Counted from the stretch's first letter, positions 25,232-64,000 are shown. The stretch is DNA of 64,000 nucleotides from a virus (IMGVR_UViG_3300027909_000003); one strand, 5' to 3'. Notes: generated from the sequence alone by a model not told the origin. Program-made: numbers and translations.

Positions 25232-25245
25232 GGCCCCAGGCCGGC

Positions 25246-26839: not shown

Positions 26840-26868
26840 GCGCGACCCGCCACGAGCGCGACCGCCAC
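26838..26868 (+). repeat. Imperfect tandem duplication gagcgcgac(c)cgccac x2
   Basis: Read directly; lies in the 57-nt gap before gene 26897. Confidence 0.8.
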
Positions 26869-26896
26869 GGCGTGCCCGTAGACGACAGGAGACCAC

Positions 26897-43994: not shown

Positions 43995-44197
43995 TGTCTT
44001 ACCTCGCCAACTTCGCCGACAGATACGCCGAATGCACTACGCTTTACATTGTGAATCTGTCCATTGCTTATCTTGACGCGAATCCTGTTTGGAGTCTTAT
44101 TGTCGAGCAGCACGACAGTCTCACCAGCCCTGAGCAATATGTCGCAGCACAACACACGCAGATCGCTTCTGAGGGTATAAGTCTTACCGATTTTCAC
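43991..44197 (-). CDS. Hypothetical small protein within the glyco-cassette
   Basis: ORF 43991..44311 trimmed to GTG at 44197 (GTGA overlap with the methyltransferase stop): VKIGKTYTLRSDLRVLCCDILLRAGETVVLLDNK... Confidence 0.4.
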   Translation of the reverse strand: MKIGKTYTLRSDLRVLCCDILLRAGETVVLLDNKTPNRIRVKISNGQIHNVKRSAFGVSVGEVGEVRH

Positions 44198-45441: not shown

Positions 45442-46238
45442 AGCGCCACCATAGCTTCTTGATTTACCCTGTCGTACTGTGGACCATAAGGTGAATGCCT
45501 CGTCTCTGGAGCAATCCGAAGAGAAAGACCTGGATTGTTCCATGGCAAAGTAAGCGTCTCTTCGCCATTAGGACCGCCCCACTTTCGACAGTAGTAATTC
45601 CTATTGCGCACAAAGGTGTCGTGGTTGCGACGATTCACCTCTGGGTCACGATAGATAGTGCCACTCCCGACGTGAGAGACAGAGGTTCCCTCGCACACTG
45701 TCTGGCCCAAGCCTGACAGAGTCGCGCGTCGACCATAGTCGCAGTCTTCAAAATATGCAGGGAACAGATTTTCATCGAAGCAACCAAGAACCTCAAGTGC
45801 AAGTGGCTGTAGTGCGAAGCATGAATAGCCATGAGAAGAAACGGCCCTCTTGGCGCGCTCATGGTATCCACCGCACACAACTATGAAACCATCACGATGG
45901 TTCACTGCGTGCTCTGCCATGCGCCTCAGGTCACCAGCTCCAAACACAATGTCGTCATTAGCGATGATCACGACATCTGCACCATCTTCATAGCAGGCAA
46001 GCACACCTTCGTTCCAAGCACGTGCGAGACCTGCATTGTGCCGAATATCGCGCAATTGACACGCCGAGCCGTACCGCGCCGCAACATCATGGCAAGCCTG
46101 CACAGTTTCCTCATCGTTGGAGTGTAGGAACAATTCAAAACGCAAGGCATCGCTGAGAGTGAAACCATCAGCGCTATCAACCAAACGAACCAAGTCACGT
46201 CCAGAATTGTACGCTGCGATTACCAATCCGATGTTCAT
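45438..46238 (-). CDS. GT-A glycosyltransferase (family 2-like)
   Basis: GLVIAAYNSGRDLVRLVDS and the DxD region VVIIANDDIVF. Confidence 0.75.
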   Translation of the reverse strand: MNIGLVIAAYNSGRDLVRLVDSADGFTLSDALRFELFLHSNDEETVQACHDVAARYGSACQLRDIRHNAGLARAWNEGVLACYEDGADVVIIANDDIVFGAGDLRRMAEHAVNHRDGFIVVCGGYHERAKRAVSSHGYSCFALQPLALEVLGCFDENLFPAYFEDCDYGRRATLSGLGQTVCEGTSVSHVGSGTIYRDPEVNRRNHDTFVRNRNYYCRKWGGPNGEETLTLPWNNPGLSLRIAPETRHSPYGPQYDRVNQEAMVAL

Positions 46239-47641
46239 GCCTGTACCTTTTTCAATACTAGTGATGCAAACGTATAACCGTGCACGTGTGCTCCGCGATC
46301 AGTATAGTCTGGCGTCCCGAGCAATTCAAACCCAGGCGCATCGTTGATCAAGCGGCTCAAACGCGCGACATTATACGTTCGCAGATGCCCAGATACTTGT
46401 GGAACTCCGTCTGGCCAAAAGTCCACAGTAAGGATAAGCAGACCGCCTGGCCGCACGAAGCTCTGCAAGCGACGAAAGAAATCGCGATCTTCCTCGATGT
46501 GTTCCAATACTGATAGACATGTTACTGCATCGTAAGTCCTCCGATCATCATAACTCATGATGTCTTGCTGATGATAAACCAAAGGACGCCCAAGCGTCCA
46601 GGCTTGATGAGCGACCCATTCCAAACAATCGCCAGGGTCAACCTGGACCACAGTAATTCCAAGCGACGCGGCAGCGGGAGCGAAGACAGAGCCGCCACCA
46701 CCCACATCTAACACCGAGAAGCACTCACGCGATCGCAGCACATTGAGCGCCAGTCCATACTCCCATGCGCGTAGAGGGTGCTCAAAGCGGTGGGCGACGC
46801 TGGCGAGTTGCTCGTTGATGTTAAGGACGATTGCAGACTCCTCGAAGTTGTCTGCAGGATCATATGTCTTCGAGTAAATGATAGGCTGCCTGGCATTGAT
46901 GCCAAGAGAGTACAGAATATCGATCGCCGACGGGTTAACAAGATAGTGGTTATACGGTGACTGCACCCAATGTCGCTCGTCCCAAGAGCGCCCGTCGTGT
47001 GGCACCACCTTCGGCATTGAGAAGCCATTAGCAAGCACGAGCATTGCCGAAGACAACCCAAAAAACCCGCCGGAATCGGCAAGCCACGGCAAGATCTCTA
47101 ACATGTCAAGGCCCGTCAGATCGAGGCTGCGCCCTCTGCCAATATACTCACCAAATGCGCCAATTTCGACGACTGGTATAGGACTCAGGCCAATTACCTC
47201 ACGGAACAAATCCGCATAGCTCGTCTCGCCACGAGCTGCCAACACTGTGTACGATCCGCTGCCAAGCGTCGCACGCTGATAGAAGTCGTAGCGAACATCG
47301 CAGCCTCGCCAGTCAATTCCAGACTGAGAGGCAATGAACTCATTGAGTGGCCGATCAGGAATCGTCCTAAACCCCAGGTGATGCACAGCGTCATAGCCAT
47401 CTGGCACTGGCATTTGCCATGGCTGAACGCCGCAATCAGCGCGCTCAGGAATGTAGTCGCCAGCTACTATAGCGTGTCGTATATAAGGTTGTGCTTGTAC
47501 AAGATCGAGAATGGGCCGGCAATACTCGCTCGTGTAGAAGTCAGCCTTACAACCATGAATTTGGCACAGCGCACGCACTGTAGGCAATGCGTAGAGCGCG
47601 TCGCCAATCTTACCAGGATGGGTGCAAGCAATCACTCGCAA
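46235..47641 (-). CDS. Fusion protein: GT9 (heptosyltransferase-like) glycosyltransferase plus class I SAM methyltransferase
   Basis: N-terminus MRVIACTHPGKIGDALYALPTVRAL is GT9-like. C-terminal VLDVGGGGSVFAPAAASLG...LSVLEHIEEDRDFFRRLQSFVRPGGLLILTVD is a SAM MTase. Confidence 0.7.
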   Translation of the reverse strand: MRVIACTHPGKIGDALYALPTVRALCQIHGCKADFYTSEYCRPILDLVQAQPYIRHAIVAGDYIPERADCGVQPWQMPVPDGYDAVHHLGFRTIPDRPLNEFIASQSGIDWRGCDVRYDFYQRATLGSGSYTVLAARGETSYADLFREVIGLSPIPVVEIGAFGEYIGRGRSLDLTGLDMLEILPWLADSGGFFGLSSAMLVLANGFSMPKVVPHDGRSWDERHWVQSPYNHYLVNPSAIDILYSLGINARQPIIYSKTYDPADNFEESAIVLNINEQLASVAHRFEHPLRAWEYGLALNVLRSRECFSVLDVGGGGSVFAPAAASLGITVVQVDPGDCLEWVAHQAWTLGRPLVYHQQDIMSYDDRRTYDAVTCLSVLEHIEEDRDFFRRLQSFVRPGGLLILTVDFWPDGVPQVSGHLRTYNVARLSRLINDAPGFELLGTPDYTDRGAHVHGYTFASLVLKKVQA

Positions 47642-49657: not shown

Positions 49658-50686
49658 TTACGAAATGACGTAGATGCCGCTGCGATCAGCCGCCGTGGCC
49701 CGGACCACTGGCACCTGAATGGCGAACACCTTCATCGCCACTGCCATACCGCCGTAGATGTCCCACTGAATGGTCTGAATGCCCTCGCCGTCGGCGATGG
49801 CGACCACGTCACGGGTGGCCTGGAACACTGTGATCGTGTTGGCCGGCTGCTGATCAGCAATGATGATCTTCTGCAGACCCTTGATCTTCATGATGCGATC
49901 GTTGATCGTGACGCCAGGATACAGCGTGCTGTAATCGACGTCGACTACATCACCATAGGCGCCAGGGAGCAGAACCCAATACGGACCATAGAACCGCTTG
50001 GTCCGCAGCACGGCGACCGCCGTGCGAATGTCGTTGAACATGTCGAGGCCGGTCTTGGCGACCTGTGCCCAGTTGCCGTTGGTGCCGAAACCACCGGTGT
50101 TGCGCTTGGGGTGGTTGTTGAGGCCATAGACTGTCTGACCACCATAGGTCGGACCACCGATGATTGTCATCTCCTCAATCTTCTCACCAACCAGCCCGCC
50201 CGACAGGCCGACCTGCAGCGTGTCGAGCGGCTCGCCACTATCACGGCTCGCCTCCAGAGAACGCAGGCCGATATTGAAGTCCTTGTGTGTGATGGGAAGC
50301 GGCACACCGAGGTGGTCGAACTCGGTGCGATCATTGTCGCTGCGAGCCAATCCGTCAAGCGACACGATGGCAGGAGTCATGTTGGTGATCCTGTCCCACT
50401 GGAACACAGTCTTGCCCATCGCGTTGGGGATGGGGATTCGCAGGCCTGCAGCCAACAGGTCGGTGACGAGCGGAGAGCGGACCAACCCCTCGCGCACCGC
50501 TACCTTATCGAACTCAATCCATGCATTGAACGGAAGTGTGTCGAGGGTGCGCAGCTCCTTGGGGCTGAGCTTACGCCCTTCCTTCAGGGCCTTGAGCAGC
50601 TGCTCGCCGGCCCACCGACCGCCGGTATCGCCGCTGCTCATGAATGCGTTGGCGCCATCGACGCGCGCCGGAGTAGCTTCGGACAT
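49658..50686 (-). CDS. Major capsid protein (HK97 fold, encapsulin-like family)
   Basis: 342 aa after the scaffold and decoration genes. The N-terminal region (…LDTLPFNAWIEFDKVAVREGLVRSPLVTDLLAAGL…) resembles encapsulin/Linocin-type capsid proteins. Confidence 0.75.
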   Translation of the reverse strand: MSEATPARVDGANAFMSSGDTGGRWAGEQLLKALKEGRKLSPKELRTLDTLPFNAWIEFDKVAVREGLVRSPLVTDLLAAGLRIPIPNAMGKTVFQWDRITNMTPAIVSLDGLARSDNDRTEFDHLGVPLPITHKDFNIGLRSLEASRDSGEPLDTLQVGLSGGLVGEKIEEMTIIGGPTYGGQTVYGLNNHPKRNTGGFGTNGNWAQVAKTGLDMFNDIRTAVAVLRTKRFYGPYWVLLPGAYGDVVDVDYSTLYPGVTINDRIMKIKGLQKIIIADQQPANTITVFQATRDVVAIADGEGIQTIQWDIYGGMAVAMKVFAIQVPVVRATAADRSGIYVIS

Positions 50687-51185: not shown

Positions 51186-52724
51186 TTATGCCTCGTTGGA
51201 GAGCCCACGCATGGCACGTGCCGACTTCTCCATCGAGGGCGGCGGCGGAATTACCTGCGGCTCACCCTCGGGTGCCAGCGACGGAACGAATCGCGCGCTG
51301 TGATCCTTGGGTGTGGCCTTGGCCAACTTGGCCACGCGCTCGAGCTCGGACACCTTCATAGCCTTCAGATCGGCATCACTGTAGGCGTCCTGCTTGGTAG
51401 CCTTGATGGCCACGAGCAACTCGGCATGGCGAGCACGATCACGCTCCTGCTCGCGCGCGGCCATCGCACGCAACGCCTGAAGCTCCTCAGCCTGAATCGC
51501 CACCACGCCCTCGGGCAGCTTCGGCTCAGCCGGTGGATCCTTCTTTTCATCGTCCTTCTTCTCGTCGTCCTTCTTCTCAGTATCAGCAACCGATGCCTCC
51601 AGCACTGCGAGTCGCTCTGCGGGCACGGCAGTCAACCATGCGCGATCGCCTTCGTTGAACTTGCCAGACTTGATGAGCGCCGCGACGCGCTCTTCGGGCT
51701 TGTCCATCTTCGTCTCCTTATTTGCGTCGTCGACGCGGTTATGAGCACAGCCGCACGATGCGGCTTTCGGTTCCTTCTGTGCACATTCAGCACCCAAGCT
51801 AACTGCATGATCGTGGACCGTCTGAAGCATCTTCTGGTCGCTCGCTGAGTGGCGCTTGCCTGCAGCAGCGATCAGTTCTGTAACCAGCTCCAGTTCCTCA
51901 ACTTGCTCCACATCTACTTCCGCTGCAATTTCGCGCGATGTATCATCCTCTGTGCCAACATCAGCCACTGTGAGCTTGGCAAGCAGAGCCTTGAGTCGGT
52001 CAGCAACTGTCATGGCAGACTCCTTTGAAGACGATGGCGGAGGCGGCTTTTCGTGGACAATGGTTGAAGGCGGTGTGACCGGAGTCGTAACCGCCGGCTC
52101 GTCCACGAGAGACAGACCCTCCGCCGAAACCATATGACGCATGGCTCGAACGCCACACCCCATTTTGTTTGAGCATGCGCCGGTAGCGCCAGGAGGCAAT
52201 AGCGCAATATGGTCGCCTTGAAGATCGCGCCAAATGCCGACATACTTTTTGCCGTTGGGAGCAACACCGCTCTTGTCTTCGACCTCAACCTCTACACCAA
52301 CACTCACTTCAATGGGCTCGTTTTTCTCTGCCCGCTGCAGAGCACTCAAGGCGTCACCGCCGAGCCGCTCGGCACGTGCACGGTCGATCCATGCATCCAG
52401 GATCATGCGCCCATCAATGAAACGAGGATTATCAATACGGCCGAACGCGTGGCGATCAGCAATATGCGCAGGATTGGCCGAGACGTAACGGCCATCTACC
52501 TGCGGATGATCCCCAACAACAGGGCGCCCACACCAACTCATGTAACCACGCCGAATCTCTTCAGCAGGTACAAATTCTGGAGTATCACTGTTAGCTGCGT
52601 GCACCACCTCATCACCGATTAGCACTGTCAAGGGAACAATCAGGTGTGGGCGTTCCTGGAACAGTGCAGTACGCAACTGCGAGCCAACAGCATTGACGAG
52701 TGTGAGGTAGCGAAGCTCGCTCAT
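51186..52724 (-). CDS. Prohead scaffold/protease-like protein (DUF2213-like N-domain plus acidic coiled-coil C-region)
   Basis: 512 aa. The N-terminal ~200 aa resemble DUF2213 proteins. The C-terminus has a KKDDEKKDDEKKD repeat and coiled coils. Confidence 0.5.
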   Translation of the reverse strand: MSELRYLTLVNAVGSQLRTALFQERPHLIVPLTVLIGDEVVHAANSDTPEFVPAEEIRRGYMSWCGRPVVGDHPQVDGRYVSANPAHIADRHAFGRIDNPRFIDGRMILDAWIDRARAERLGGDALSALQRAEKNEPIEVSVGVEVEVEDKSGVAPNGKKYVGIWRDLQGDHIALLPPGATGACSNKMGCGVRAMRHMVSAEGLSLVDEPAVTTPVTPPSTIVHEKPPPPSSSKESAMTVADRLKALLAKLTVADVGTEDDTSREIAAEVDVEQVEELELVTELIAAAGKRHSASDQKMLQTVHDHAVSLGAECAQKEPKAASCGCAHNRVDDANKETKMDKPEERVAALIKSGKFNEGDRAWLTAVPAERLAVLEASVADTEKKDDEKKDDEKKDPPAEPKLPEGVVAIQAEELQALRAMAAREQERDRARHAELLVAIKATKQDAYSDADLKAMKVSELERVAKLAKATPKDHSARFVPSLAPEGEPQVIPPPPSMEKSARAMRGLSNEA

Positions 52725-53311
52725 AGTTGTGCCTCAACTAGTCCGACGCTGCAGCGACAGCGCGGATGCGCACCATCACCAGGCTCGATCTCAGTGCCGT
52801 CTTCTGTCACGAAATTCTCGCCTATGGGCACTTTCTGCCCAGCAAGAAACTCGCAGATATCGCAAGAGACCTCGTCATCAGTGAAGATCCACTCCATCAT
52901 CTCCTGCCCTGAGAGCAAGCCTGCCTCGCGTGCCTGGTTCCACAGCTCAACTTGCCCTGCGCGCGCAGAGTTAAGACTTTCAGTCTGAGCAATCATGTCA
53001 GCACGGTCTGCAATGAGCTCACGAGTGTACCGTTCGGCAGCCTTGTCGATCTTCTCACGACTAGCGCCATCCTCGGCCATCTCAGCCCGCAGCCGTGCCA
53101 CTGCGCCGGCGCCTTGCTCGGTGAGGCCGATCATGGCGCGAATCAGTTTTGCTGTTTCGCGTGGCGGTCGACCCTCAGTGAAGGCTTCAGCGATGATCTG
53201 CCGAATGCCTGCGCGTGTAGCTTTGTTGATGTCTGTGATGAGTGTGGCGCTGTGCTTGAGCGCGTGGCGCACGGCCATTGGATTGGTGCGGTCGAAGGAT
53301 GCAAGAATCAT
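52721..53311 (-). CDS. Head morphogenesis protein (SPP1 gp7 / Mu F family)
   Basis: ADRADMIAQTESLNSARAGQ...DDEVSCDICEFLAGQKV...HPRCRCSV are hallmark MuF/gp7 motifs. Confidence 0.8.
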   Translation of the reverse strand: MILASFDRTNPMAVRHALKHSATLITDINKATRAGIRQIIAEAFTEGRPPRETAKLIRAMIGLTEQGAGAVARLRAEMAEDGASREKIDKAAERYTRELIADRADMIAQTESLNSARAGQVELWNQAREAGLLSGQEMMEWIFTDDEVSCDICEFLAGQKVPIGENFVTEDGTEIEPGDGAHPRCRCSVGLVEAQL

Positions 53312-53505
53312 TTCTTCACCGTCTGTCGCCGCACTGCGTTGGCGCCGTCTTCCATGATGTCGAGAAGGGTGCCTGCCAGTCCGTGCCGTGGTGCTGGCTT
53401 GAAGAGCTTGGCGTGGCGCTCGCGCGCCTCAAACCCAACCGCGACAGCCACGGCGCAGAGGGCGCGGATGCGCGAGAGGCGGGCATGGTCCATCAGGGAG
53501 TCCAC
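53308..53505 (-). CDS. Hypothetical small protein
   Basis: 65-aa ORF in register. Confidence 0.35.
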   Translation of the reverse strand: MDSLMDHARLSRIRALCAVAVAVGFEARERHAKLFKPAPRHGLAGTLLDIMEDGANAVRRQTVKK

Positions 53506-53720
53506 TCTTGCTTGAAGATTGCGAAGATCAGGTAATCAGGAGTGTTGTCTGAATAGCGCTCAAACTTCATCTGCCAAGATTCGAGCACTCGGCCTTGCTG
53601 GCGATGCTCCGAGATGGCCGTCTGGAAGTTTGATGCAAGCTCAATGTCGTAGCCGCCGCCTATCAAGACAACCACCTGAGAACCAATAGCAAGCAGTCCG
53701 CCGACGTGATCGCTCGCCAC
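53493..53720 (-). CDS. Hypothetical small protein
   Basis: 75-aa ORF that starts at the portal stop. Confidence 0.4.
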   Translation of the reverse strand: MASDHVGGLLAIGSQVVVLIGGGYDIELASNFQTAISEHRQQGRVLESWQMKFERYSDNTPDYLIFAIFKQEWTP

Positions 53721-55918
53721 TATAGGCCCCCACCCACAAGCTGGATAACGGATTTGTTGCTATCGGCATCGCTGAAGACAACTTCAGAAACAGAAGCCAT
53801 CAGTCCTTCGAACCGAGCATCGCCGATATAGTTCTTTCCAAGCCCAGGCTTGAGGTATGCAACACACGCATGTGGAATGTACGTTGGATGTGTGTCTGTT
53901 GTGACGAGCGCTGAAGCAATCTTCTTGTTAAGTCTCTCAAGGTCCATACTGGTGACTGAAACATACAGCACGTCGTACTCTTCAGATGCAAAAATTGCAG
54001 TCTTACCGAGCTTCAGTGCTGCTGGTGCTTGACCCGCGAGAGCAGAGCGAACCTCATCGGCATCTTGGGTGTGCAACCCGTACTTCACTGTGACATGCGG
54101 ATCGTTCTCACGTCCATCGGCAGCAAGTGCAGCATCAGGAATCGTGAGACTATATGCTAGCAACTTTTTAGCAATTTCAGGGGGCAGCTGCACTTGCGTA
54201 GAGGAGAACTTTCGCTCCTTGTCGATTGCTCTTCGCTCGCTTGCGACAGCAAACAGCGTCGCCGCCTGCGCCGGCAACTCCTCGTCCAGTAGCTCTCCGA
54301 ACAGTGCGACAGCTGCGGCGAGTAGCTCCTCGGCCTTAACGCGGTTGCCCTCTAGCGCAGCCTGCTCTAGCGCCTCCATGTCTACTTTGTCACGTACACG
54401 ATCAAACGCAGAACGAAATGCTGCTTCCAATCGTGGCGCGTAAGCATCGGCAACCTTATGTGTTGCCTTCCATGCAGGCTCGGCGGCAGCACGCTGCGCA
54501 TCTTCTTCCGTTGCATTATCGTCTTCAGCGCCAGGAAGAGGCACACCAGGCAGAACAGGAGCAGGAGGTGGCTTAGGTAGTTCTTCCTCTGGTATGGGAT
54601 CGAGCCCCCATATGCGATTACGAATCTCAGCAGAGGTCATGATCGGATCGCCACCAGCATTCTTTTGTGCTTGATTAGCAGTGGCAATCGCACCAGCAGC
54701 TGCAGTCTTCTCCGACTCGGACATTTCCTCTTCTACAGGCCACTCAATCTCGTATTTGCCATCCTTCGGCTCTGGCAGTTGGCCAACCTCAATAAAGTGA
54801 TCCACGAGTTTGCGCAACGCCGGCTCTGCGACCGATGTGCGGCGCGTAGCAACCTCATCATTGAAGTTGTCGTCCTCACTCTTGCCGGTCATCTCGCCGA
54901 TGCCGCTACCCAGTAGCTTGCGCTGCGGAATCCCCTTGGCTGCGGCAATCAACGCAATGACCAACTTGGCACTACTGTCGAAGGGGAATGGGCCACCGCT
55001 CAGCGCGTCTAATTCCACGCCTACAGTCTGAAACAATCGGCGCTGATTATGCTCGTACTCCGCATATTGCTCACTGATCTTCTCCTTGAGCGCTGCTAGA
55101 TCAGAGTCAGACATACCAGCAGCCATCTCAGGATCGAACTTCGCGTTCATCCCGGGATGCGCCCGATGCCACGCAGCCTCGCCACCACCACCAACGAGCT
55201 TGTCTAGATCATCAAGCTTGTTCCACACAGAGCGAAGACGAGGCTCGCCGAAGATATCATCGGCAAGATTTCCCTCAACAAAATGAATGATGTGAGAATG
55301 ATGAACGCGACGGGTCAAACCAGCAACAGAACCAGGCACTGGAATGCCTGTCACTGTACCTAACCTTACTTGATAGAACAACGGTTGCCCGAAGCGCTCG
55401 CTCTCCTTGTCTGCGTCCAGTGACTCGACTGTGCACTGCTCTTCACCCAGAGGCTGCAGAGACAGAACGGGCAACTTGCCATCACGCTCTTGTTCTAGGT
55501 TTTGTGCGGAACCGAGCAGCATCACTCCATAGCGCCCAAGCCCAGCGAGGACATCAAGCCGCAGCATGCGAGGCCACACCTGTAGCTGCTTGAACAGCTC
55601 CTTGGCAGCAGTCTCAAATGGCGTCTCGGTCTCTGTGTCATCGTCATCATAGACACAGCCCTTGGCACCCCAAGTCGCCTTGGGGAATGCCTCGACGATA
55701 GACTCAGCAATATCGCCGCGCTCGTAGCGCGTGCGATACATGGCTGGCGTAATGAAGTCAGCGTAGCCTAGCGCCTTGCTAACGTTGCGCTGGCCACCGA
55801 AGGTAAGGTTAGCACGCTCGGCCCATTGTGCGCGGCCAGCGATGGCAGATGCTGCAGCGCGCAACCACGCAAGCATGCCGTGGTCGCTGCCGTTTTGCTC
55901 CGACGAGGCTCTTGCCAC
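53720..55918 (-). CDS. Portal-like protein (DUF1073 type) fused to a C-terminal 2H-phosphoesterase (Acb1/LigT-like) domain
   Basis: 732 aa after TerL. The N-terminal ~470 aa are portal-like. The C-terminal ~160 aa carry two H-x-(T/S/C)-x motifs, HVTV (codon at 54095-54097) and HACV (53870-53872), spaced ~75 aa apart with flanking hydrophobic beta-strands. Confidence 0.7.
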   Translation of the reverse strand: MARASSEQNGSDHGMLAWLRAAASAIAGRAQWAERANLTFGGQRNVSKALGYADFITPAMYRTRYERGDIAESIVEAFPKATWGAKGCVYDDDDTETETPFETAAKELFKQLQVWPRMLRLDVLAGLGRYGVMLLGSAQNLEQERDGKLPVLSLQPLGEEQCTVESLDADKESERFGQPLFYQVRLGTVTGIPVPGSVAGLTRRVHHSHIIHFVEGNLADDIFGEPRLRSVWNKLDDLDKLVGGGGEAAWHRAHPGMNAKFDPEMAAGMSDSDLAALKEKISEQYAEYEHNQRRLFQTVGVELDALSGGPFPFDSSAKLVIALIAAAKGIPQRKLLGSGIGEMTGKSEDDNFNDEVATRRTSVAEPALRKLVDHFIEVGQLPEPKDGKYEIEWPVEEEMSESEKTAAAGAIATANQAQKNAGGDPIMTSAEIRNRIWGLDPIPEEELPKPPPAPVLPGVPLPGAEDDNATEEDAQRAAAEPAWKATHKVADAYAPRLEAAFRSAFDRVRDKVDMEALEQAALEGNRVKAEELLAAAVALFGELLDEELPAQAATLFAVASERRAIDKERKFSSTQVQLPPEIAKKLLAYSLTIPDAALAADGRENDPHVTVKYGLHTQDADEVRSALAGQAPAALKLGKTAIFASEEYDVLYVSVTSMDLERLNKKIASALVTTDTHPTYIPHACVAYLKPGLGKNYIGDARFEGLMASVSEVVFSDADSNKSVIQLVGGGL

Positions 55919-56098
55919 CCTTGCCGGGCTCCACTTCCTCGGTGGGAGTCCTGGGCCGGTCCCCGCGCGCCGGGGACGGGGCGGCCGGCGCGTAACAGCC
56001 GCCCCTAGGCCGCTAAGTATGGGGCCAACGGGGCGGGGGCCAACGCGGGTGGGCCTAAGTCGCTGAGGCTACGGGCGGTTCCCACCCGCCGTCGGGGA
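55919..56098. repeat. GC-rich TA-punctuated island (family member F) between a small ORF and the portal gene, running into the small ORF's 3' end
   Basis: ggccggtccccgcgcgccggggacggggcggccggcgcgtaacagccgcccctaggccgctaag...ggcctaagtcgctgaggctacgggcgg, with CCTAGG at 56004-56009. Confidence 0.6.
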
Positions 56099-56300
56099 AC
56101 ACGTACAGCGAAAGATCGGAATCACGCACATGTGCACGAATATTGTAAATTGATTCATCTGGTGCCCAACCACGTGCAGGACCGATGACGAAGCGCTCTT
56201 CAATATGAAGATGTCGCATTGACTCTGCGATATATTGACTGCGAGCGAGTTGACCTGCGAGAGCTTTTGCTTCTTCTATTGCTCTTTGCCATGTAAACAT
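56055..56300 (-). CDS. Hypothetical small protein
   Basis: ORF 56055..56366 trimmed to ATG at 56300, 1 nt after the TerL stop: MFTWQRAIEEAKALAGQ... Confidence 0.5.
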   Translation of the reverse strand: MFTWQRAIEEAKALAGQLARSQYIAESMRHLHIEERFVIGPARGWAPDESIYNIRAHVRDSDLSLYVFPDGGWEPPVASAT

Positions 56301-56301
56301 G

Positions 56302-57693
56302 TCAATCCCCAATCCAAACGCGCTTGCCACTGCGCACACGCTCAACCGCATAACGCAGCGAATCAATCACGTGATTCTTCTTGTCCTCAAGCACAGGAGT
56401 AACAAGACCAGTCATCTTGTCTGTCTTATACGAGTACATGGTGAGTTCATCAATCGTATGCTTACATCGTGGGTGAACAATGATGTCATAATTCTGAAGA
56501 AAGATGACACCTTCTTTAACGCTGTTCGGCCCCTTGATTGCTGCTGTGATCTTGGGATAGCCATGCTTCTGTAGATACGAGATCGTTTCTGGTCGTGCGC
56601 TATCTGCAGTGATTGTCCATTGTCTAGCCATGCCGTGTGCTGGAAGATCTCTACACCACACAGGGATCTCACACCCACAGGCATAGAAGCGATTCGGTCC
56701 AGGCTTGCCATGCTTCGCTATGCTCGTACATGGAACATTGGGTATCTCACAACCACAGGTAGCACGATCAAACAGATCAGGCAGATCATCAATCTCACAT
56801 CCTATCTTGTATGCCTCTCGATCGATGAACAGCTGATTGCCTACTACAAAGCAGCGAATAAGAACAGAAGGATCAATCGAGAATCCCCAGTCACCACCAA
56901 ACAGGAATACAGAATTCTCTGGTGTGTCGAATTCCTGCACCGTCCAATTCTTAAAGACGCGCGACTCGGCATGCTTCTCATACTCACCACGCCAGATGTG
57001 CGCATACTTTTCTGGGTCGCGCCTCTGGTCCCACTCCATCTCCTGTCGCAGCACTTCCGGGAACCACGGATTGTCAGTGTAGTTAACCTTGATGACCACA
57101 GCATCTGGAGGCAGGTCTGTGCCACGAAGAAGCACATCAACAGGATCTGTCGCATGTTTTGGATTCCAAGAAAACCACAATTCCGAGTCAGGCAAACGAA
57201 TCGTAGGGCGAAGCAATGTCAGTGAGCGATCAGAAAGTGACTGCGCTTCCTCTACCCACGCAATATTGAATCCTTCGAGCGACTTGATTGACTCGGCCGT
57301 CTGCTGATGCATGCCTTGAAAAATGATGATGCCACCACCAGGCGTGGCGATGTGTGTATTCATGATGCGGAATTCTTTGTGAAGCGCATACTTAGCGATC
57401 TTGTCTTCCAGCAACCGCTTCACAGACTGTTCCAATGATCTCTGGTATTCACGGATACAAACCGCCCTCACGGTCTGCTCCATACATCGCTTGATCAGCA
57501 ACTCAGCGAAGAAATGACTCTTGGCCGAACCGCGCCCTCCGTGCGCACCCTTGTAGCGACTGGGCGTCAGCAATGGCTTATAGGCATCTGGAAATGTGAT
57601 GTCTAACTGACGATGAGCTGCTGTAGTGTCCGTGAGGCCATCGCCCCACTTCTGTAGCATGCGAGCCCAGGCTGACTGCTGCTGATTAGGCAT
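56302..57693 (-). CDS. terL: Terminase large subunit (PBSX/terminase_6-like)
   Basis: Walker A GGRGSAKSHF, Walker B-like IAWVEEAQ, and C-terminal RNase-H-like nuclease motifs (GGDWGFSIDPS...HVIDSLRYA). Confidence 0.85.
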   Translation of the reverse strand: MPNQQQSAWARMLQKWGDGLTDTTAAHRQLDITFPDAYKPLLTPSRYKGAHGGRGSAKSHFFAELLIKRCMEQTVRAVCIREYQRSLEQSVKRLLEDKIAKYALHKEFRIMNTHIATPGGGIIIFQGMHQQTAESIKSLEGFNIAWVEEAQSLSDRSLTLLRPTIRLPDSELWFSWNPKHATDPVDVLLRGTDLPPDAVVIKVNYTDNPWFPEVLRQEMEWDQRRDPEKYAHIWRGEYEKHAESRVFKNWTVQEFDTPENSVFLFGGDWGFSIDPSVLIRCFVVGNQLFIDREAYKIGCEIDDLPDLFDRATCGCEIPNVPCTSIAKHGKPGPNRFYACGCEIPVWCRDLPAHGMARQWTITADSARPETISYLQKHGYPKITAAIKGPNSVKEGVIFLQNYDIIVHPRCKHTIDELTMYSYKTDKMTGLVTPVLEDKKNHVIDSLRYAVERVRSGKRVWIGD

Positions 57694-57904
57694 GCTTGAT
57701 CAACAGAGCTGTATAGTAACGCTCACCTTCATCTGCCGTATGCGAGACAACTGTCCAGCCTTGATCACGCAGCATCTCTAACAATCCAACAAACTCCTCG
57801 CGATCCTTGGATTCAACCAGCCCTGTGTTACCAGAACCTGTGACAAGGCTACACAAACCGTACTTCATGGTGTTCTTGCTAATTAGCGGCATCACAGACC
57901 ACAT
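57686..57904 (-). CDS. Hypothetical small protein
   Basis: 72-aa ORF that overlaps the TerL start by 8 nt. Confidence 0.45.
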   Translation of the reverse strand: MWSVMPLISKNTMKYGLCSLVTGSGNTGLVESKDREEFVGLLEMLRDQGWTVVSHTADEGERYYTALLIKHA

Positions 57905-57907
57905 CCT

Positions 57908-58663
57908 TTATGTATCATTGCCATGGTCAATCCCTTGCATGTATGCAATGCAATCACGCGCAACTATCGATCCAATTTTGAATAGCAAGCGACGTGCCAC
58001 TTCAAGATTGTTCTTAACATCAACAAGAGCATCGTGTGCGCTGCCATCATACTTAATGCCGAATCGTTCCAGCAGTGCTGGCATGTTAAGGGGAATATTA
58101 TCCATACCATGCTCCATAAACATGACCCAGCAAGCAAGATGGTATGTGTCCAGGCATCGATACTCACAAGGAAAGAAGCGGTCTGGACCGTACAGCGCGC
58201 GCAAGTGTGGAATGTCAAATGCTGCGATGTTATGCCCTGCCAGGCGAGCAACAGAATACTTCTTGTGTGGAGGTTTCTTTCCAACCATGGGCACCGACTT
58301 ATGCCGATTGAGGAATGCGTCGATTAAGGATTGTGCCTGTGCGCGTGACTTGATGTTGGACCGTTTGTTCCAGACATCAACACACTTGATAAACTCTTCA
58401 CGATCTGGGACAAGCTTCTCTTCAACAGCAACCATATTGCCCGTGTACCCCGTCAGATGTGCGAACACATTGCCTCTCATTGCCTCGATCTCCCAAGGAT
58501 CGTCAAGGACATGAAAGGCAATCTTGTACTCTACTTGCTCTACAGAAACAAGCGTCTTTGCGTCAACTGCAATGGCAGCAAACTGAAGAATGTGATGCTT
58601 ACCTGGCTCTCTGCCTGAGGTCTCAAGATCGAAGAAGACTAGATGGCCATTATTGCTGGTCAT
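57908..58663 (-). CDS. DEDDh 3'-5' exonuclease (DnaQ/RNase T-like)
   Basis: LVFFDLETSG (Exo I), GHNIAAFDIPHL (Exo II), HDALVDV (Exo III). Confidence 0.8.
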   Translation of the reverse strand: MTSNNGHLVFFDLETSGREPGKHHILQFAAIAVDAKTLVSVEQVEYKIAFHVLDDPWEIEAMRGNVFAHLTGYTGNMVAVEEKLVPDREEFIKCVDVWNKRSNIKSRAQAQSLIDAFLNRHKSVPMVGKKPPHKKYSVARLAGHNIAAFDIPHLRALYGPDRFFPCEYRCLDTYHLACWVMFMEHGMDNIPLNMPALLERFGIKYDGSAHDALVDVKNNLEVARRLLFKIGSIVARDCIAYMQGIDHGNDT

Positions 58664-58937
58664 AATTGCCCTTCAATACAGAAAGGATTACTTGTCTAGC
58701 ACCTTCCACATCACCACTCTCAAACATCCTTCGAGCCTCGGCCACCTCATTAGGCCAAACAGGTCTTGTCTCCATGAATCGAATGGCACCATTAACAGAG
58801 TTCACCGAAATCTCATTGAGGCGATCGAGAAGTTCGTTAGCTTCTCCTCTCAGTTGACGCCGTCTTTGCCGGTAGCAGCACTCAATCTCATAGGCGATGC
58901 GCTTCTTCTCTTCTGAGACGCTGCGAGGTCCACTCAT
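58650..58937 (-). CDS. Hypothetical small protein
   Basis: 95-aa ORF in register. Confidence 0.45.
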   Translation of the reverse strand: MSGPRSVSEEKKRIAYEIECCYRQRRRQLRGEANELLDRLNEISVNSVNGAIRFMETRPVWPNEVAEARRMFESGDVEGARQVILSVLKGNYDQQ

Positions 58938-59689
58938 GACTGCTCTCCCTCTACAATCTCTGCATCGACTGTGTCTGGCAGCAAGCTGTGCCCAATGGCG
59001 CCACTGCCAAGTTCCTGCACGCGCCTCACATAAGCACTCAGCTTCTGCTTGTCGTCTGTGAGGCTCTTCGCCTCTGCAATCAGAGCTTGAATGAAGGCGT
59101 CAATGTGCTCAATCAAGATGCGCTCACTGAGAAGCTTCTGCCATGCCAGCTCTGCTTGACTGAGCTTGGCCCGCGTGGCCAGCAGGCGGTGGACCTCGTC
59201 CCAGGCGTTGTTAATCAAGGCCTGCTGCTCTACTATAGCGGCCAAGGCCTCGTACCCCCGCTTAACCCCCTGGAGGTTTTCCCTATCCAGCTCCATGAGG
59301 ACCACACCCAACGCTGCACGAAAACTGATAGTCACGCCCGTGGGTTTTCCTGCAGTGATATTGCTCAAGACTTCTGCTGTTCGGGCATCGACCAGGGCCA
59401 GCTCCTCGCGGCAACTAGCAGCCTCCTCTAGCTTACTGAGGTCGAAATGCTCACGGAGCCCCTGAGGGAGCACTGCACTGTACTTACTTGCGCGGCCTGT
59501 CTTCCAGTTTTTGCTAGCTGGCCCGACCAGAGACTTGCCACCGTGCCGTCGGCAACGGTTAGATCCCTTGATTGGATGTACGCAACAATAGCGCGGAGGA
59601 TCACTATTCCTGAGCTTTGCACCGCACCGTCCAGGTGTAGGATCTGCGCTACCGCGATCCTGCTTGTTAGGATCATTGAGTGTGTTCAT
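58934..59689 (-). CDS. Zinc-ribbon (C..C..H...C..HGG) DNA-binding protein; possible terminase small subunit
   Basis: RCGAKLRNSDPPRYCCVHPIKGSNRCRRHGGKS followed by a helical region. The TerS idea rests only on the motif type and on proximity to terL. Confidence 0.35.
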   Translation of the reverse strand: MNTLNDPNKQDRGSADPTPGRCGAKLRNSDPPRYCCVHPIKGSNRCRRHGGKSLVGPASKNWKTGRASKYSAVLPQGLREHFDLSKLEEAASCREELALVDARTAEVLSNITAGKPTGVTISFRAALGVVLMELDRENLQGVKRGYEALAAIVEQQALINNAWDEVHRLLATRAKLSQAELAWQKLLSERILIEHIDAFIQALIAEAKSLTDDKQKLSAYVRRVQELGSGAIGHSLLPDTVDAEIVEGEQS

Positions 59690-59704
59690 AGGGCAGCATT
59701 CATC

Positions 59705-62560
59705 TCATGCAGTAGCAAACGGTTTGTACAATGGACTGACTTCCTCGAGACAGCGCCAACGTTTGATGTAGATCAGTCGGAATCCGTCCTCCTTGATTGA
59801 TCCCTTCCACATGAACCACTGTCCAGCTCTGCCATGTTCGATGATCGGTTTTCCCCACTGCTGGTAGTCCCACCTCTGTACCCGCGTAATGATACTCCCA
59901 GTATCATCCTCCAGGGTCATGTTCAGGAACAAAGGGTCTTTATCAATCAGCTTTCCCCCTCGCTTCACTACGTTACCATACTCATTCAGATCACGCAAAT
60001 TGAGATCAGCAATCTTAGCAAGAAAGACATAGTCTCCCTGGCCCTCGATATCCTTCACACGATAGATCTTCCCACTGATAACATTGAAGTCTTCAGGACG
60101 ATCATAGATCATCTTGAATCGTCGCTCTCCCTCAAAGATGTCATCATACGGAGTTTTTGCCTCACTTAGCAACTTGCGTTGCCCCGGGAGCAGGGCACGT
60201 CCTGAGGAACGACGTGCGATGATGTCTTCAGCCTTCTTCGGTCCAACTCCCTTGATGTTCGTGAGACCACCGATCAACTTACCATCAACAACAGACCACT
60301 CTAGACCAGACCTCTCTGCGTCCACAGGAGTGTACGCAAAGCCTTCCTGCACGAGATCGCGCAATACGTTCACGCCTTGCGCTTCATCCTTTTCGTGCCT
60401 CAAGCAAGCGGCGGCAAACTCCAACGGCCAATGGGCTTTGAGGACGCAGCACCAGTAGCTGATGATTCCATAACTGATGCCGTGACTCTTGTTGAATGCC
60501 CACGAGCCAAACGTGCACATGTTCTCCCAGATCTTCCTTGACTCTTCCTCGTCAATGCCATTCTCAATGGCACCATCACGAAACCGTTCCCAGTACTTGT
60601 TGAAGAACTCCTCGCCCATGCTCTTGCTCATGGCCTTACGAAGCTCACTGACATCTTCCCAAGACAGACGACCAACATCCCTACCGATCGCCATGACCTG
60701 TTCCTGGTAGATCACCACACCATAGGTCATTGCCGTAATCGGTTCTAGCATCGGATGCATATACCGAACGGGTTCCTTTCCAATGCGTCGCTGAATGAAC
60801 GCTGTAGCAGCGCCACAGTGTAGCGGCCCAGGGCGGGCCAGCGCACCAATCACTGCAAGATCATCAAACGTCTCAACCTTCATCTGCCGACACAAGGCCT
60901 GTAGCGCGTAGCCCTCAAATTGGAAAATGCCGCTGTAGCGCTGTGTATTCAATATGCTGAATGCTGCCTCATCATCTAGAGGATATTCTAGCAACCACTT
61001 ACGCGTCTTGCCAATCTGATCAAGGCAATCCTGAAGCACGCTCAAGACGCGCAATCCCAGTGCGTCAATCTTGAGCATGTTCAGTGCTTCAGCATCCTTC
61101 TTGTCCAATTGCACCGCGCCGGAATTGTCGATGGTGCAATAACCGACGATAGGCTCTTGACATACCAGCACACCAGCAGCGTGCTTACCAGTGTGCTGCG
61201 CGTGGCCTTCGAGTATCCCTGCGATGCTCATCGCAGGATACTTTTCCAACAAGGCCTTTCCCACTTCGAGCGTCTCCAACGCATCTTTAACGCAGAACTG
61301 AGCGCGAGCATCACCGGTACTCCGCTCAATGACCGCGTCCTGCACCTTGCGCACTTCCCAAGATGGAATGCTGAGGCCCTTTGCAGTGTCACCCAACGCG
61401 CTCTTTGACTTCAGTCTAGACACAGTACCAATACGGCCAACACGATTCTCTCCATATTTATCACATAGATATGTGATAACCATGTCGCGTCGCGTGTCCT
61501 GGAAGTCAATATCAACATCAGGCAAATCAGCACGCGTCACATCAATGAATCGTTCAAACATCAAGTCGTGCTTTAGAGGATCGACCTCAGTGATTCCCAG
61601 CAAGTAGCAGACCAAACTACCAGCACTAGAACCGCGAGCAGGCCCGACCAGCATGTTGTCCTTTGCCCACACTAACAGGTCAGCAAGCATGAAGAAGTAG
61701 TCTTCGAACTTCTTCTCAGCTATCATGTCGAGCTCGCGTTTCATTCGCTCAAGATAGACATCATCTAGCGTGAGACCGCGTTTCATTGCACCGTCACGAC
61801 ACAGTTGAAGAAGCGACAACTGTGAGGCAATCTTGATGTTCTCAGCACGAGGCAATTCAGCATTACACAGCTTTGCTATCCTGCCAATGTTAACAAATTC
61901 CTCTTCACCTGCCTGCGGAACTGCTAGACATAATTCATCCTCTGCTAGAAGATGCATTGGCGTCGTTCTAGTCAGCTTGTCTCGCTGAGACAAGATCTCA
62001 TAGGCCACCTGATCTTCGAGTCGAGGGTAATGGTTGTCACAAACAACAGTATGCTGGAACCGCACGTCACGAGCAACAGTGTTATTCCATACCATGTTTG
62101 TCGGGCACATTGCCAGGTACACATCATCACTCGGATCAAGCAAATTGGTGTTTGTGCCGTGCCCCATTAGCACAATTACATCTTCACTTAGGTCGTTGAT
62201 GTGCCCATAGCTTACGCGTGGGTAGTAGTAGAAGCCGTGCTTGTTGGCCATGCTAAGCACCACGTACATTTCCTGCAGGCCGTCAGAATTCTTCGCCAGC
62301 AGAGTTGCTAAGCCTCCCGGCTGCCGCTCACGCTTCAAGCAATCAGAAACAACGGGCACTGCCACGCCGTAGATGGGTTTCACATCATGCTTCTTGCATG
62401 CCTTTGTGAATGCGACATAGCCCCAGGTACCTGTATCGGTGATGACAGCACAACGTTCGTCGTGATGAGACAAATGTCTCAACAGCACACTCAGAACGTC
62501 ATCGATTCGACCGAACGCTTTCCTGAACGAGTACTCTGTACGCACCCGTAGCTGAATCAC
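59705..62560 (-). CDS. dnaE: DNA polymerase III alpha subunit (DnaE-type C-family replicase)
   Basis: 951 aa. N-terminal PHP domain (LRVRTEYSF), polymerase core motifs (GPARGSSAGSLVCYLLGIT, DIDIDF), HhH region (GVGPKKAEDI) and a C-terminal OB-like region. GTG start coupled to the upstream ORF. Confidence 0.9.
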   Translation of the reverse strand: MIQLRVRTEYSFRKAFGRIDDVLSVLLRHLSHHDERCAVITDTGTWGYVAFTKACKKHDVKPIYGVAVPVVSDCLKRERQPGGLATLLAKNSDGLQEMYVVLSMANKHGFYYYPRVSYGHINDLSEDVIVLMGHGTNTNLLDPSDDVYLAMCPTNMVWNNTVARDVRFQHTVVCDNHYPRLEDQVAYEILSQRDKLTRTTPMHLLAEDELCLAVPQAGEEEFVNIGRIAKLCNAELPRAENIKIASQLSLLQLCRDGAMKRGLTLDDVYLERMKRELDMIAEKKFEDYFFMLADLLVWAKDNMLVGPARGSSAGSLVCYLLGITEVDPLKHDLMFERFIDVTRADLPDVDIDFQDTRRDMVITYLCDKYGENRVGRIGTVSRLKSKSALGDTAKGLSIPSWEVRKVQDAVIERSTGDARAQFCVKDALETLEVGKALLEKYPAMSIAGILEGHAQHTGKHAAGVLVCQEPIVGYCTIDNSGAVQLDKKDAEALNMLKIDALGLRVLSVLQDCLDQIGKTRKWLLEYPLDDEAAFSILNTQRYSGIFQFEGYALQALCRQMKVETFDDLAVIGALARPGPLHCGAATAFIQRRIGKEPVRYMHPMLEPITAMTYGVVIYQEQVMAIGRDVGRLSWEDVSELRKAMSKSMGEEFFNKYWERFRDGAIENGIDEEESRKIWENMCTFGSWAFNKSHGISYGIISYWCCVLKAHWPLEFAAACLRHEKDEAQGVNVLRDLVQEGFAYTPVDAERSGLEWSVVDGKLIGGLTNIKGVGPKKAEDIIARRSSGRALLPGQRKLLSEAKTPYDDIFEGERRFKMIYDRPEDFNVISGKIYRVKDIEGQGDYVFLAKIADLNLRDLNEYGNVVKRGGKLIDKDPLFLNMTLEDDTGSIITRVQRWDYQQWGKPIIEHGRAGQWFMWKGSIKEDGFRLIYIKRWRCLEEVSPLYKPFATA

Positions 62561-62730
62561 GACTTGCCCTTTCGCAGCTTTAGTCGAATAGCGAAAATTC
62601 GCTCTCGTTCATTGGCAACAAGAGAATCATTAATCAAATTCATTGTAGACAAAGATGTCAACGCTTCGTCATACAATCCCAAGCCGACCAAGACGCGCCT
62701 GATTTCTTTGTCGTTCAGAAAGACTCTCAT
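62557..62730 (-). CDS. Hypothetical small protein (57 aa)
   Basis: Below the cut-off. Manual translation: MRVFLNDKEIRRVLVGLGLYDEALTSLSTMNLINDSLVANERERIFAIRLKLRKGKS. ATGA and GTGA overlaps at the two ends. Confidence 0.5.
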   Translation of the reverse strand: MRVFLNDKEIRRVLVGLGLYDEALTSLSTMNLINDSLVANERERIFAIRLKLRKGKS

Positions 62731-63287
62731 ATGCGATTGTCCTTGGTCCGCAGCCAGCGAAGAATGGTCGCGAGACTACGAGCATCGTCTAACGCACGAT
62801 GTGTGACAGGAGGTTTCTCACCTATCACGCGAGCATATAAATCTTCTTGCTTGAGACGATCTGATTTCTGTCGAGGAACCTCAAGATCCATCGTGAGCTC
62901 AACTGTGCAGATAGGCTCTGGCGGCCAGGGAAACCGCATCAGCATATTCACCCGTGCCAGCTCCCAGTACATGACGCCAAGATCATAGCTGATGTTATGT
63001 GCTAACCATCTACGTTCGCCCAGCACAAAGGTTGTGATAGCCCTCAGCACGCCAGCAAAAGAAGGTGCATCCTGCAGCATCTCAGTAGTGATATTGTTCC
63101 ACTCAGTTACCTGTGCAGGAATAGGCCAGAGAATTTTCGGCTTGATCAAGAAGTGTATGTGATCTTTTTCCTCGAGTGTCTCATCATCCAGCTTCACTGC
63201 GCCAAACTCCATCATCTCTGGCTGCTGGTCCATCGGCACAGTGCTCGGTTTCAACCCACCAGTTGCTTCGGTATCCCAAACGATCAT
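62727..63287 (-). CDS. DEDDh 3'-5' exonuclease (Pol III epsilon-like proofreader candidate)
   Basis: MIVWDTEATG (Exo I), LAHNISYDLGVM (Exo II), HRALDDARSL (Exo III). Lies immediately upstream of dnaE. Confidence 0.8.
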   Translation of the reverse strand: MIVWDTEATGGLKPSTVPMDQQPEMMEFGAVKLDDETLEEKDHIHFLIKPKILWPIPAQVTEWNNITTEMLQDAPSFAGVLRAITTFVLGERRWLAHNISYDLGVMYWELARVNMLMRFPWPPEPICTVELTMDLEVPRQKSDRLKQEDLYARVIGEKPPVTHRALDDARSLATILRWLRTKDNRI

Positions 63288-63619
63288 GGCTGTTTCTCAC
63301 TGATCCTTCGATCCTCTGCCTCAAGCATGAAGCTATACACACCCAGATCGTGTATGCTGTCTACATGCCCAGCGTAAGGCATGGTGACATAGCGCACCAG
63401 CTTACCAACAACCTGCGTTATCAGTCCATATCGTACGAAGTCATCGTGCGTCTGAAGATGAATTCCATTTGGAAACAGAACAATCATCGCATCAGCAAAT
63501 CGCTTTTCGCTATCGCCGTAGTCGCTACGACGATCTTTGTACGTTTGTACAGCTTGCTTGAGAAGTTTCTCTGCCGGTCCTGATTTCATCCCAGCCTCCT
63601 GCTGCGTGGTTGCAGGCAA
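63284..63619 (-). CDS. Hypothetical protein
   Basis: 111-aa ORF in register. Confidence 0.5.
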   Translation of the reverse strand: MPATTQQEAGMKSGPAEKLLKQAVQTYKDRRSDYGDSEKRFADAMIVLFPNGIHLQTHDDFVRYGLITQVVGKLVRYVTMPYAGHVDSIHDLGVYSFMLEAEDRRISEKQP

Positions 63620-64000
63620 ACAATTCCATTCTCTCGGTACATGGCAACAACATCATCATCATCATCCATAGCAAAAGCAATCTTGTTCCCTTGTGCAATC
63701 AAATTGAGCAAGACCTCATTCTTGATAAGCGCTGCCGGTCTACGATCACGTGTGAATCTCATGAATATTAAACCAAAAGGAAGATCGTGCTTACTTAGCC
63801 AATGCTCTGTGATCTGTCTTTTTGAGGAATATCTGCCTGTGCTGTACACAATGCCACCGCCGCGTTGCGACCATGCACGAACCAGCTCTGCTTCAACCAT
63901 ATGAGGGCTATCCAGGTCGCAGAGCCTGTGATACAGCTCATATTCACCTGAATTTGCATAATGTACACGATGCCCATCATCGCACAATGTGCCATCAAGA
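63586..64000 (-). CDS. HAD-superfamily phosphatase (PNK-phosphatase / nucleotidase-like); the 5' end runs off the window
   Basis: The frame is open to the window edge. Manual translation upstream of the track start gives LDGTLCDD (HAD motif I tail DGTL), and a C-terminal AFAMDDDDDVVAMYRENGIVCLQ (motif IV-like). Confidence 0.55.
   Translation of the reverse strand, partial: LDGTLCDDGHRVHYANSGEYELYHRLCDLDSPHMVEAELVRAWSQRGGGIVYSTGRYSSKRQITEHWLSKHDLPFGLIFMRFTRDRRPAALIKNEVLLNLIAQGNKIAFAMDDDDDVVAMYRENGIVCLQPRSRRLG

Follow-up and report, generated by a model that had tools for sequence, protein, structure and literature searches.

Phage proteins in which a 2H phosphoesterase domain is fused to a portal protein or to a MuF protein have been described computationally (Iyer, Burroughs, Anand, de Souza and Aravind, J Bacteriol 2017, PMC5512222). 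The 2H domains of such polyvalent proteins, and their solo counterparts, were never associated with RNA ligases, and they were proposed to act either as Usb1-like RNases or in the degradation of 2'-5' oligoadenylate or cyclic-nucleotide defence signals (PMC5512222). The phage 2H enzyme Acb1, which is able to defeat the cyclic oligonucleotide-based anti-phage signalling system (CBASS), is defined by an HxT/HxT tetrad, an aromatic clamp (Y12, W74, F107 and W147) and a C-terminal lid, the tetrad of the Acb1 from phage FBB1 consisting of H44, T46, H113 and T115 (Hobbs et al. 2022, PMC9117128). The viral DNA analysed here, IMGVR_UViG_3300027909_000003 (the whole stretch of 64,000 nucleotides is hereafter called the window), encodes on its (-) strand a protein of 732 amino acids (aa), hereafter called portal-2H (53720..55918), in which a portal is followed by a C-terminal 2H phosphoesterase domain. 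Both this architecture and the anti-signal hypothesis have already been published, computationally only, and the 732-aa protein is a further example. It has the domain architecture of a polyvalent protein, namely a portal joined to a 2H domain in a phage that bears terL, the effector domain coming from the polyvalent clade. Like the proteins described earlier (PMC5512222), it has its portal at the N-terminus and its 2H domain, of the same 2H clade, at the C-terminus, and it is encoded by a terminase-portal phage in which no RNA ligase was seen among the Pfam-annotated genes. Unlike them, it is a minimal two-domain form built on a portal subfamily in which the nearest members carry no fusion, its junction lies after an extra helical extension, its second catalytic motif is H-x-C, and its MuF protein is encoded separately and is split.

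The C-terminal domain (aa ~569-728; 53735..54214, (-) strand) was recognised by the Pfam family PF13563 (2_5_RNA_ligase2) with 30.7 bits in the whole protein and 33.7 bits as an isolated domain, the gathering cut-off being 27, and the same part of the protein matched PHROG 755 (expectation value (E) 5e-7). Stand-alone homologues of the domain matched down to E 5e-47. An AlphaFold2 model of the domain, built from an alignment of 21 homologues, had a mean predicted local distance difference test score (pLDDT) of 93.4. The 47 best Foldseek matches of this model in the PDB were all proteins or domains of the 2H phosphoesterase fold, including drCPDase, TT0787, YjcG, LigT, Usb1, AKAP18, the plant cyclic phosphodiesterase (CPDase), a phosphodiesterase of phage BCSR5, Acb1, and the viral 2',5'-phosphodiesterases ns2 and VP3, with a Foldseek probability of 1.0 for the first seven of these and for Acb1. 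No publication was located for the solved structure of the BCSR5 phosphodiesterase (9Q2Y). The Foldseek matches in the viral library BFVD were likewise 2H enzymes. The top one was a domain of a 1,030-aa protein labelled 'uncultured Caudovirales' (template modelling (TM) score 0.88, 38 % identity), and annotated Acb1 proteins appeared in that library only from rank 22. In sequence searches the best match in the PDB was YjcG, which was marginal (E 0.11), and no NCBIfam family scored above its cut-off, the best being the PRK13679/YjcG-like family with 24 bits versus a cut-off of 129.

An initial annotation, made from the DNA sequence, had assigned the last ~160 aa of the protein to the 2H superfamily, and the profile search and structure prediction which it had suggested both placed the domain there when they were run. 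The interval it had given, 53720-54208, corresponds to aa 571-732 of the 732-aa open reading frame (ORF) together with the stop codon. Motif 1, H608-V-T610-V (aa 608-611; 54086..54097, (-) strand), is the canonical HVTV, and motif 2, H683-A-C685-V (aa 683-686; 53861..53872, (-) strand), is HACV, with the Cys codon TGT at 53864-53866; the positions of both motifs and the Cys in place of Thr were as first reported. The signature of the family is otherwise intact in portal-2H (SSTQ, HVTVKYG, LN and Y-PH-x-AY-KPG). By profile and predicted fold the C-terminal domain is a 2H phosphoesterase, and it is probably active.

The preceding region (aa 9-560; 54239..55894, (-) strand) is assigned to the portal by Pfam, PHROG, homology and predicted fold. 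Its core (aa 65-414; 54677..55726, (-) strand) matched PF06381, Phage_portal_3, formerly DUF1073, with 79.3 bits versus a cut-off of 33.8 over profile positions 7-354 of 357, and the 732-aa protein matched PHROG 146, 'portal protein', with E 5e-52. A full-length AlphaFold2 model had pLDDT values of 70-95 over aa 50-440, and its best Foldseek match in the PDB was the portal of Sf11 (9yin; E 7e-18, TM 0.80), followed by the portals of Pam3, FCWL1, E217, T1, HFTV1, G20c and lambda. In this model the portal part was interpreted; the 2H part was poorly predicted because the joint alignment of portal and solo 2H sequences had misaligned the solo proteins. The portal identity proposed at the outset, including the expected match to the DUF1073 profile, was therefore upheld, and on the evidence of the profiles and the model the gene product is the structural portal of the phage. 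No second portal was found in the ~65-kb genome by Pfam analysis of called genes over ~46 kb, the families of which were taken from the gene lists of further contigs of this phage, and of 10 further ORFs; the analysis covered all but some mid-sized ORFs between 12 and 24 kb. The claim that this is the only portal candidate thus stood, whereas the claim that it directly follows terL did not, since an ORF of 81 aa (56055..56300) intervenes.

Between the portal core and the 2H domain lie a Pro-rich segment predicted to be disordered (aa 447-481, PKPPPAPVLPGVPLPG; 54476..54580, (-) strand), for which the full-length model gave pLDDT values under 50, and a helical extension (aa 482-571; 54206..54475, (-) strand), the last residues of which enter the 2H junction. 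The helices of the extension span aa 482-511, 514-522 and 526-571, and the pLDDT of the full-length model was 76-90 over aa 491-560. The initial annotation had regarded aa 480-560 as a linker resembling MuF. This was not supported: unfused portals of 550-588 aa aligned by BLAST up to aa 546-560 of the query at their own extreme C-termini, the helical extension was kept in the unfused portals P0002-P0008, no match to PF04233 (MuF) was found in portal-2H at E up to 0.1, and MuF is encoded separately. Because of the alignment with the C-termini of unfused portals, and because the helices follow the disordered Pro-rich stretch in the model, this region was assigned to a C-terminal extension of the portal subfamily, and the MuF-like linker was rejected. 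The homology to portals stops at ~aa 560 and the 2H domain begins at ~aa 569.

The closest relatives of the 2H domain were all found in fusions to PF06381 portals (P0119, which is a partial protein, L006 and L008). The 2H domain of P0119 was 60 % identical to that of the 732-aa protein and that of L006 60 % identical by BLAST and 55 % in the profile alignment. The portals of these closest 2H fusions were only 35-39 % identical to the portal of the 732-aa protein; the portals closest to it (40-54 % identity) were unfused. P0119 and L006 resemble portal-2H in that their portals belong to the Phage_portal_3 family and their 2H domains are two of the closest, P0119 also having H-A-C in its second motif. 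They differ from it in their portals, which share only 36-39 % identity with its own, in having a short linker (~50 aa, versus ~120 aa including the helical extension in portal-2H) and in continuing beyond the 2H domain into more domains, whereas portal-2H stops after 2H. In the nearest fusions a motif, GGPGSGNFGHxGRPG, follows the 2H domain and is itself followed by the further domains, and the 732-aa protein terminates (…LVGGGL*) where this motif would be expected to start. In the form GGPGSGNFGH[AES]GRPG it was observed after the 2H domain and between later domains in L006 (L006:537-4340), P0119, L008, L018, L020 and L062, and may represent either a linker or a site of processing. The simplest reading of these comparisons is that the fusion would have arisen by a modular swap of C-terminal cargo among portal genes. 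In the related portal-MuF fusions P0017 and P0018, MuF begins ~37 aa after the portal; when the sequences are compared with these, the 2H domain and an ORF of 75 aa sit inserted at the portal-MuF junction.

A word-indexed search with the whole 732-aa protein returned no other fusion, and the impression of a unique architecture which this gave was overturned by an exhaustive profile search of 1.84 billion representatives and by a scan of IMG/VR, because both showed many fusions. In the profile search the 2H clade comprised 5,813 clusters at 50 % identity, and the family profile found 2H domains in proteins of 1,500-5,700 aa with E 1e-66 to 1e-78. Among 142 newly returned top matches, 81 had at least 2,000 aa and three had fewer than 300 aa. 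Relatives of the 2H domain were encoded on 436 IMG/VR stretches, and architectures were surveyed in the best 80 loci of these. There were few solo genes in these 80 loci; the domain was mostly located at aa ~470-700 of proteins of 640-880 aa, or deeper in proteins of 2,000-5,000 aa. An N-terminal portal was recognised by Pfam in 25 of 54 distinct IMG/VR proteins the N-terminal parts of which were scanned (Phage_portal_3 in 14, Phage_portal in six, Portal_Mu in four and Phage_portal_2 in one). Full architectures in IMG/VR include Phage_portal_3 with 2H and a Zeta toxin (L006, 1,267 aa) and Portal_Mu with 2H and MuF (L068). Among mid-sized matches of the profile search were Portal_Mu with 2H (P0172) and Phage_portal with 2H (P0136), and one protein found by that search combines 2H with GGDEF and ART-PolyVal. 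The solo relatives which were examined adjoin portals, within head modules. According to these searches, most members of the clade reside within giant phage polyvalent proteins.

Further 2H fusions observed were His_Phos_1 with 2H (P0078), sigma-70 region 2 with 2H, in this case with H-V-C (P0107), and 2H with GGDEF and ART-PolyVal (P0088). The clade also occurred in bacterial genomes (loci L088-L132), mainly in metagenome-assembled genomes of Acidobacteriota (Blastocatellia, Pyrinomonadaceae and Vicinamibacterales) and Planctomycetota, which hints that phages of this group have hosts in soil.

The initial annotation had likened the domain to Acb1, and membership of that family was not borne out. 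The Pfam family Acb1 (PF23474) scored 15.5 bits on the 2H domain, below its cut-off of 27, and the solved Acb1 (7T26) ranked only 20th among the fold matches (TM 0.48/0.59), behind drCPDase, TT0787, YjcG, LigT, Usb1 and the plant CPDase. The 2H clade does border on Acb1, since some of its members clear the Acb1 cut-off (P0026 with 30.3, P0045 with 43.6 and L085 with 35.3 bits). A link between DUF1073 and Acb1, put forward in the annotation, fits the data in so far as PF06381 portals were fused to the 2H clade in 14 of the 54 proteins; no paper on a database annotation of this kind was found. Portal-2H shares with Acb1 (T4 gp57B and that of Erwinia phage FBB1; PDB 7T26/7T27) the 2H fold in a phage protein and paired motifs of the H-x-T type, and metal-independent phosphodiesterase chemistry is presumed here by analogy. 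Acb1, which has a C-terminal lid and an aromatic clamp, is a stand-alone protein of ~150 aa with HxT/HxT motifs, whereas the domain of portal-2H is fused and has HxT/HxC; three of the four residues of the Acb1 tetrad are present, and the fourth is Cys685. The best structure and sequence matches were instead LigT, YjcG and the bacterial and plant CPDases (5H7E, 1IUH, 2D4G, 5LDM and 1JH6; TM 0.58-0.67). These are cellular stand-alone enzymes which are not associated with virions, they are only 13-17 % identical to the domain of portal-2H, and the clade of portal-2H has signature residues of its own (FSSTQ and HVTVKYG).

As to function, we lean towards portal-2H being an enzyme carried as cargo inside the capsid and serving counter-defence, because members of the clade are found in polyvalent proteins anchored to portals or MuF, because neither an RNA ligase nor a kinase was seen among the Pfam-annotated genes, and because Acb1 defeats CBASS. 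A portal, through which DNA passes into and out of the capsid, is a ring of 12 copies, the C-terminal crown of which faces the capsid interior, and for this reason twelve 2H copies would lie inside the head, beside the DNA end that exits first. Each would be tethered through the disordered Pro-rich segment and the helical extension, and would either be freed by a maturation protease or act while tethered. At entry the domain would act on a molecule of host defence, as a phosphodiesterase that needs no metal, with an effect like that of Acb1 if the target is an immune signal. Nucleotide second messengers linked 3'-5' or 2'-5', such as those of CBASS, type III clustered regularly interspaced short palindromic repeats (CRISPR) systems or systems like 2'-5' oligoadenylate synthetase (OAS), would be the substrates of first rank, RNA ends with 2',3'-cyclic phosphates those of second rank and RNA 3' tails those of third. 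Effectors that are attached to internal proteins of the head, or packaged together with them, include the SPP1 gp7-type MuF toxin fusions, DarA and DarB of P1, and Alt and IPI of T4. We infer by analogy that portal-2H would act like such packaged anti-defence cargo (T4 Alt, IPI, P1 DarA/B, MuF-toxin) and not like a stand-alone Acb1. If it is delivered, the effector would, as in those systems, be in place as DNA enters; the carrier differs in being the portal, an essential 12-copy ring, release from which would need proteolysis.

A more specific form of this proposal is that twelve active phosphodiesterases of cyclic or 2'-5' oligonucleotides on the inner face of the portal would be released at head maturation, exit with the leading DNA and destroy the signals of CBASS, type III CRISPR or OAS-like systems before any phage gene is expressed; this is on the whole doubtful. 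The H-x-C motif might keep the enzyme quiescent when oxidised in the virion and allow it to become active once reduced in the cytoplasm.

Several points weigh against a function as counter-defence cargo. Being covalently tied to the portal, the domain could enter the host only after cleavage, for which there is no known site. The closest portals lack a 2H domain, so that assembly does not require it and any benefit from it may vary with the host. The change from Thr to Cys in an HxT motif could lower activity. The domain falls under the threshold of the Acb1 profile and is, in the predicted structure, closer to CPDase and LigT. Finally, no experimental work on portal-2H fusions, whether biochemical or proteomic, was found in the literature.

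Among the other explanations, a serious though rather unlikely one is that the enzyme remains undelivered and acts late in the producing cell, the fusion ensuring late co-expression and the copies in the virion being incidental. Mutations which allow escape from type I CBASS were found in genes for prohead protease, capsid and tail fibre, pointing to a trigger during late assembly (bioRxiv 10.1101/2023.05.21.541620), and the solo relatives of the domain also lie within late head modules, both of which would suit late action. The clade, however, sits in giant polyvalent proteins anchored to portals or MuF and carrying ART, Zeta toxin and GGDEF domains, which fits packaged cargo, and fusion to a structural protein of 12 copies yields little enzyme per cell.

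Iyer et al. (2017, PMC5512222) had suggested in the first place an RNase effector, which would be injected and would trim or cleave host RNAs after delivery in the manner of Usb1/Mpn1; they drew on the parallel architectures in which PBECR RNase domains are fused to MuF or to a portal. Usb1 was indeed among the fold matches, but its similarity to the domain was no better than that of the CPDases, and no conserved immunity-like gene lies adjacent: the 75-aa ORF next to the portal gene is without homologues, and a related locus has an unrelated ORF of 67 aa. This role is regarded as unlikely. We consider equally improbable a role in RNA end-healing, in which, within an RNA repair pathway, the domain would open the 2',3'-cyclic phosphates that anticodon nucleases or HEPN RNases of the host leave behind. 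The best fold matches are enzymes of the CPDase, LigT and YjcG types and the genome encodes a HAD_PNKP-like phosphatase of 149 aa, as end-healing would predict; the Pfam-annotated genes, however, included neither an RNA ligase (Rnl, RtcB) nor a polynucleotide kinase domain, so an RNA repair operon was rejected. Furthermore, the 2H clade was never associated with RNA ligases (PMC5512222), and a portal would be an odd place for a repair enzyme.

It is very unlikely that the 2H domain has no catalytic activity and is an appendage of the portal crown with a structural role or a role in binding nucleic acid. Motif statistics were taken from 225 distinct domains of the family, in which motif 1 has His in 224 and Thr in 223, and the third position of motif 2 is Thr in 218, Cys in four, Ser in two and Asp in one. 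The replacement of so common a Thr by Cys at the second HxT would agree with loss of activity. Against this, both catalytic His residues, which are practically invariant among the 225 domains, are conserved in portal-2H together with all remaining signature residues, and Cys recurs in four lineages. The nearest relative, the portal fusion P0119 (60 % identity), likewise has H-A-C in motif 2, so that the Cys has persisted across 40 % divergence, and a route of single steps from Thr (ACT) through Ser (AGT) to Cys (TGT) passes through a permitted residue. The retention of H-A-C in P0119 and the open route through Ser argue for Cys685 being a tolerated or adaptive variant, as far as can be judged from sequence comparison, and not a sign of decay.

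The portal-2H gene starts with GTG, preceded by GGAG, and ends with the stop codon TAG at 53720-53722; an alternative in-frame ATG is codon 15, near the start of the alignment with the L006 homologue. The identical 732-aa product was found on at least five contigs, each of ~65 kb, from three sources (ENA, Logan and JGI), and neither the fusion nor the Cys is therefore an accident of assembly or sequencing. Although the word-indexed search gave only one 90 %-identity cluster with the exact portal-2H architecture, an artefact of frameshift or chimeric assembly is next to impossible and was rejected in view of these contigs, the reading frame, which is uninterrupted throughout, and the common recurrence of the architecture in other proteins.

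The contigs were circularly permuted with respect to each other, one of them joining the two ends of the window, and the genome is therefore considered complete at ~65 kb. The gene order around portal-2H is terL, the 81-aa ORF, portal, the 75-aa ORF, MuF, a DUF2213 protein, an ORF of 144 aa and an HK97-like capsid protein, and the head module is syntenic with that of the related locus L002, the portal of which is 54 % identical. The large terminase gene upstream (56302..57693, (-) strand) encodes Terminase_3 and Terminase_3C domains. The GTG start of the 75-aa ORF (53493..53720, (-) strand) overlaps the portal stop codon (TAGTG). The product had no homologue in any locus fetched and no family match, and as it is without homologues the ORF was rejected as a conserved immunity gene; in a related phage the unrelated 67-aa ORF occupies its place.

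The MuF gene is split (52721..53493, (-) strand) into ORFs of 61 and 196 aa which overlap by ATGA, the second being in the -1 frame, whereas L002 has a single MuF of 254 aa. The 61-aa ORF (53308..53493, (-) strand) corresponds to the N-terminal part, with 52 % identity to aa 1-57 of the L002 MuF (E 2e-15), and the 196-aa ORF (52721..53311, (-) strand), a MuF (SPP1 gp7-like) head morphogenesis protein (PF04233, 35.2 bits; PHROG 3517, E 3e-35), to aa 60-246. The split may reflect two genuine cistrons, a site of frameshifting or a mutation. Further downstream are a DUF2213 protein of 512 aa (PF09979; 51186..52724, (-) strand), a candidate prohead protease or scaffold with weak matches to PHROG 'head maturation protease' families, and the candidate major capsid protein (49658..50686, (-) strand), which matched DUF6260 and Linocin_M18 (HK97-fold).

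Two glycosyltransferases (GT2 and GT4) and two large methyltransferases are encoded between the head and tail genes (42759..47635, (-) strand), a cluster which suggests that components of the virion or of the host are glycosylated or otherwise modified. A replication and nucleotide module (1..1600 and 57900..64000) contains DNA polymerase III alpha (951 aa, 59705..62560), two RNase_T-like exonucleases, ThyX (800..1600), a carbamoyltransferase and the 149-aa HAD_PNKP-like phosphatase, which runs off the window end. In the block 24000..30000 the G+C content was 0.60-0.665, compared with 0.50-0.55 elsewhere, with a strong AT skew, and the ORFs tested from this block had no Pfam match. Exact-protein look-ups of the ORFs at 13446 and 18279 also gave no match.

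To readers of the polyvalent-protein literature the fusion will be unsurprising, and alone it represents no new kind of system; its value is that of a compact, tractable example, the two-domain protein being a convenient test case for the 2017 prediction. Fusions of portal and 2H are widespread, the clade comprising thousands of clusters and the fusions involving four portal families, many of them in contexts of soil Acidobacteriota and Planctomycetota. If the proposed release from the portal and destruction of immune signals at entry are true, portal-2H would be the first anti-signalling enzyme demonstrated to be delivered by a virion. The known phage enzymes and sponges that neutralise immune nucleotide signals (Acb1, Apyc1, Acb2 and Tad1/2) are described as products that appear only after infection. 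If built into the portal, a phosphodiesterase would precede phage gene expression, and would thereby revise the view of the timing of signalling immunity and of its evasion.

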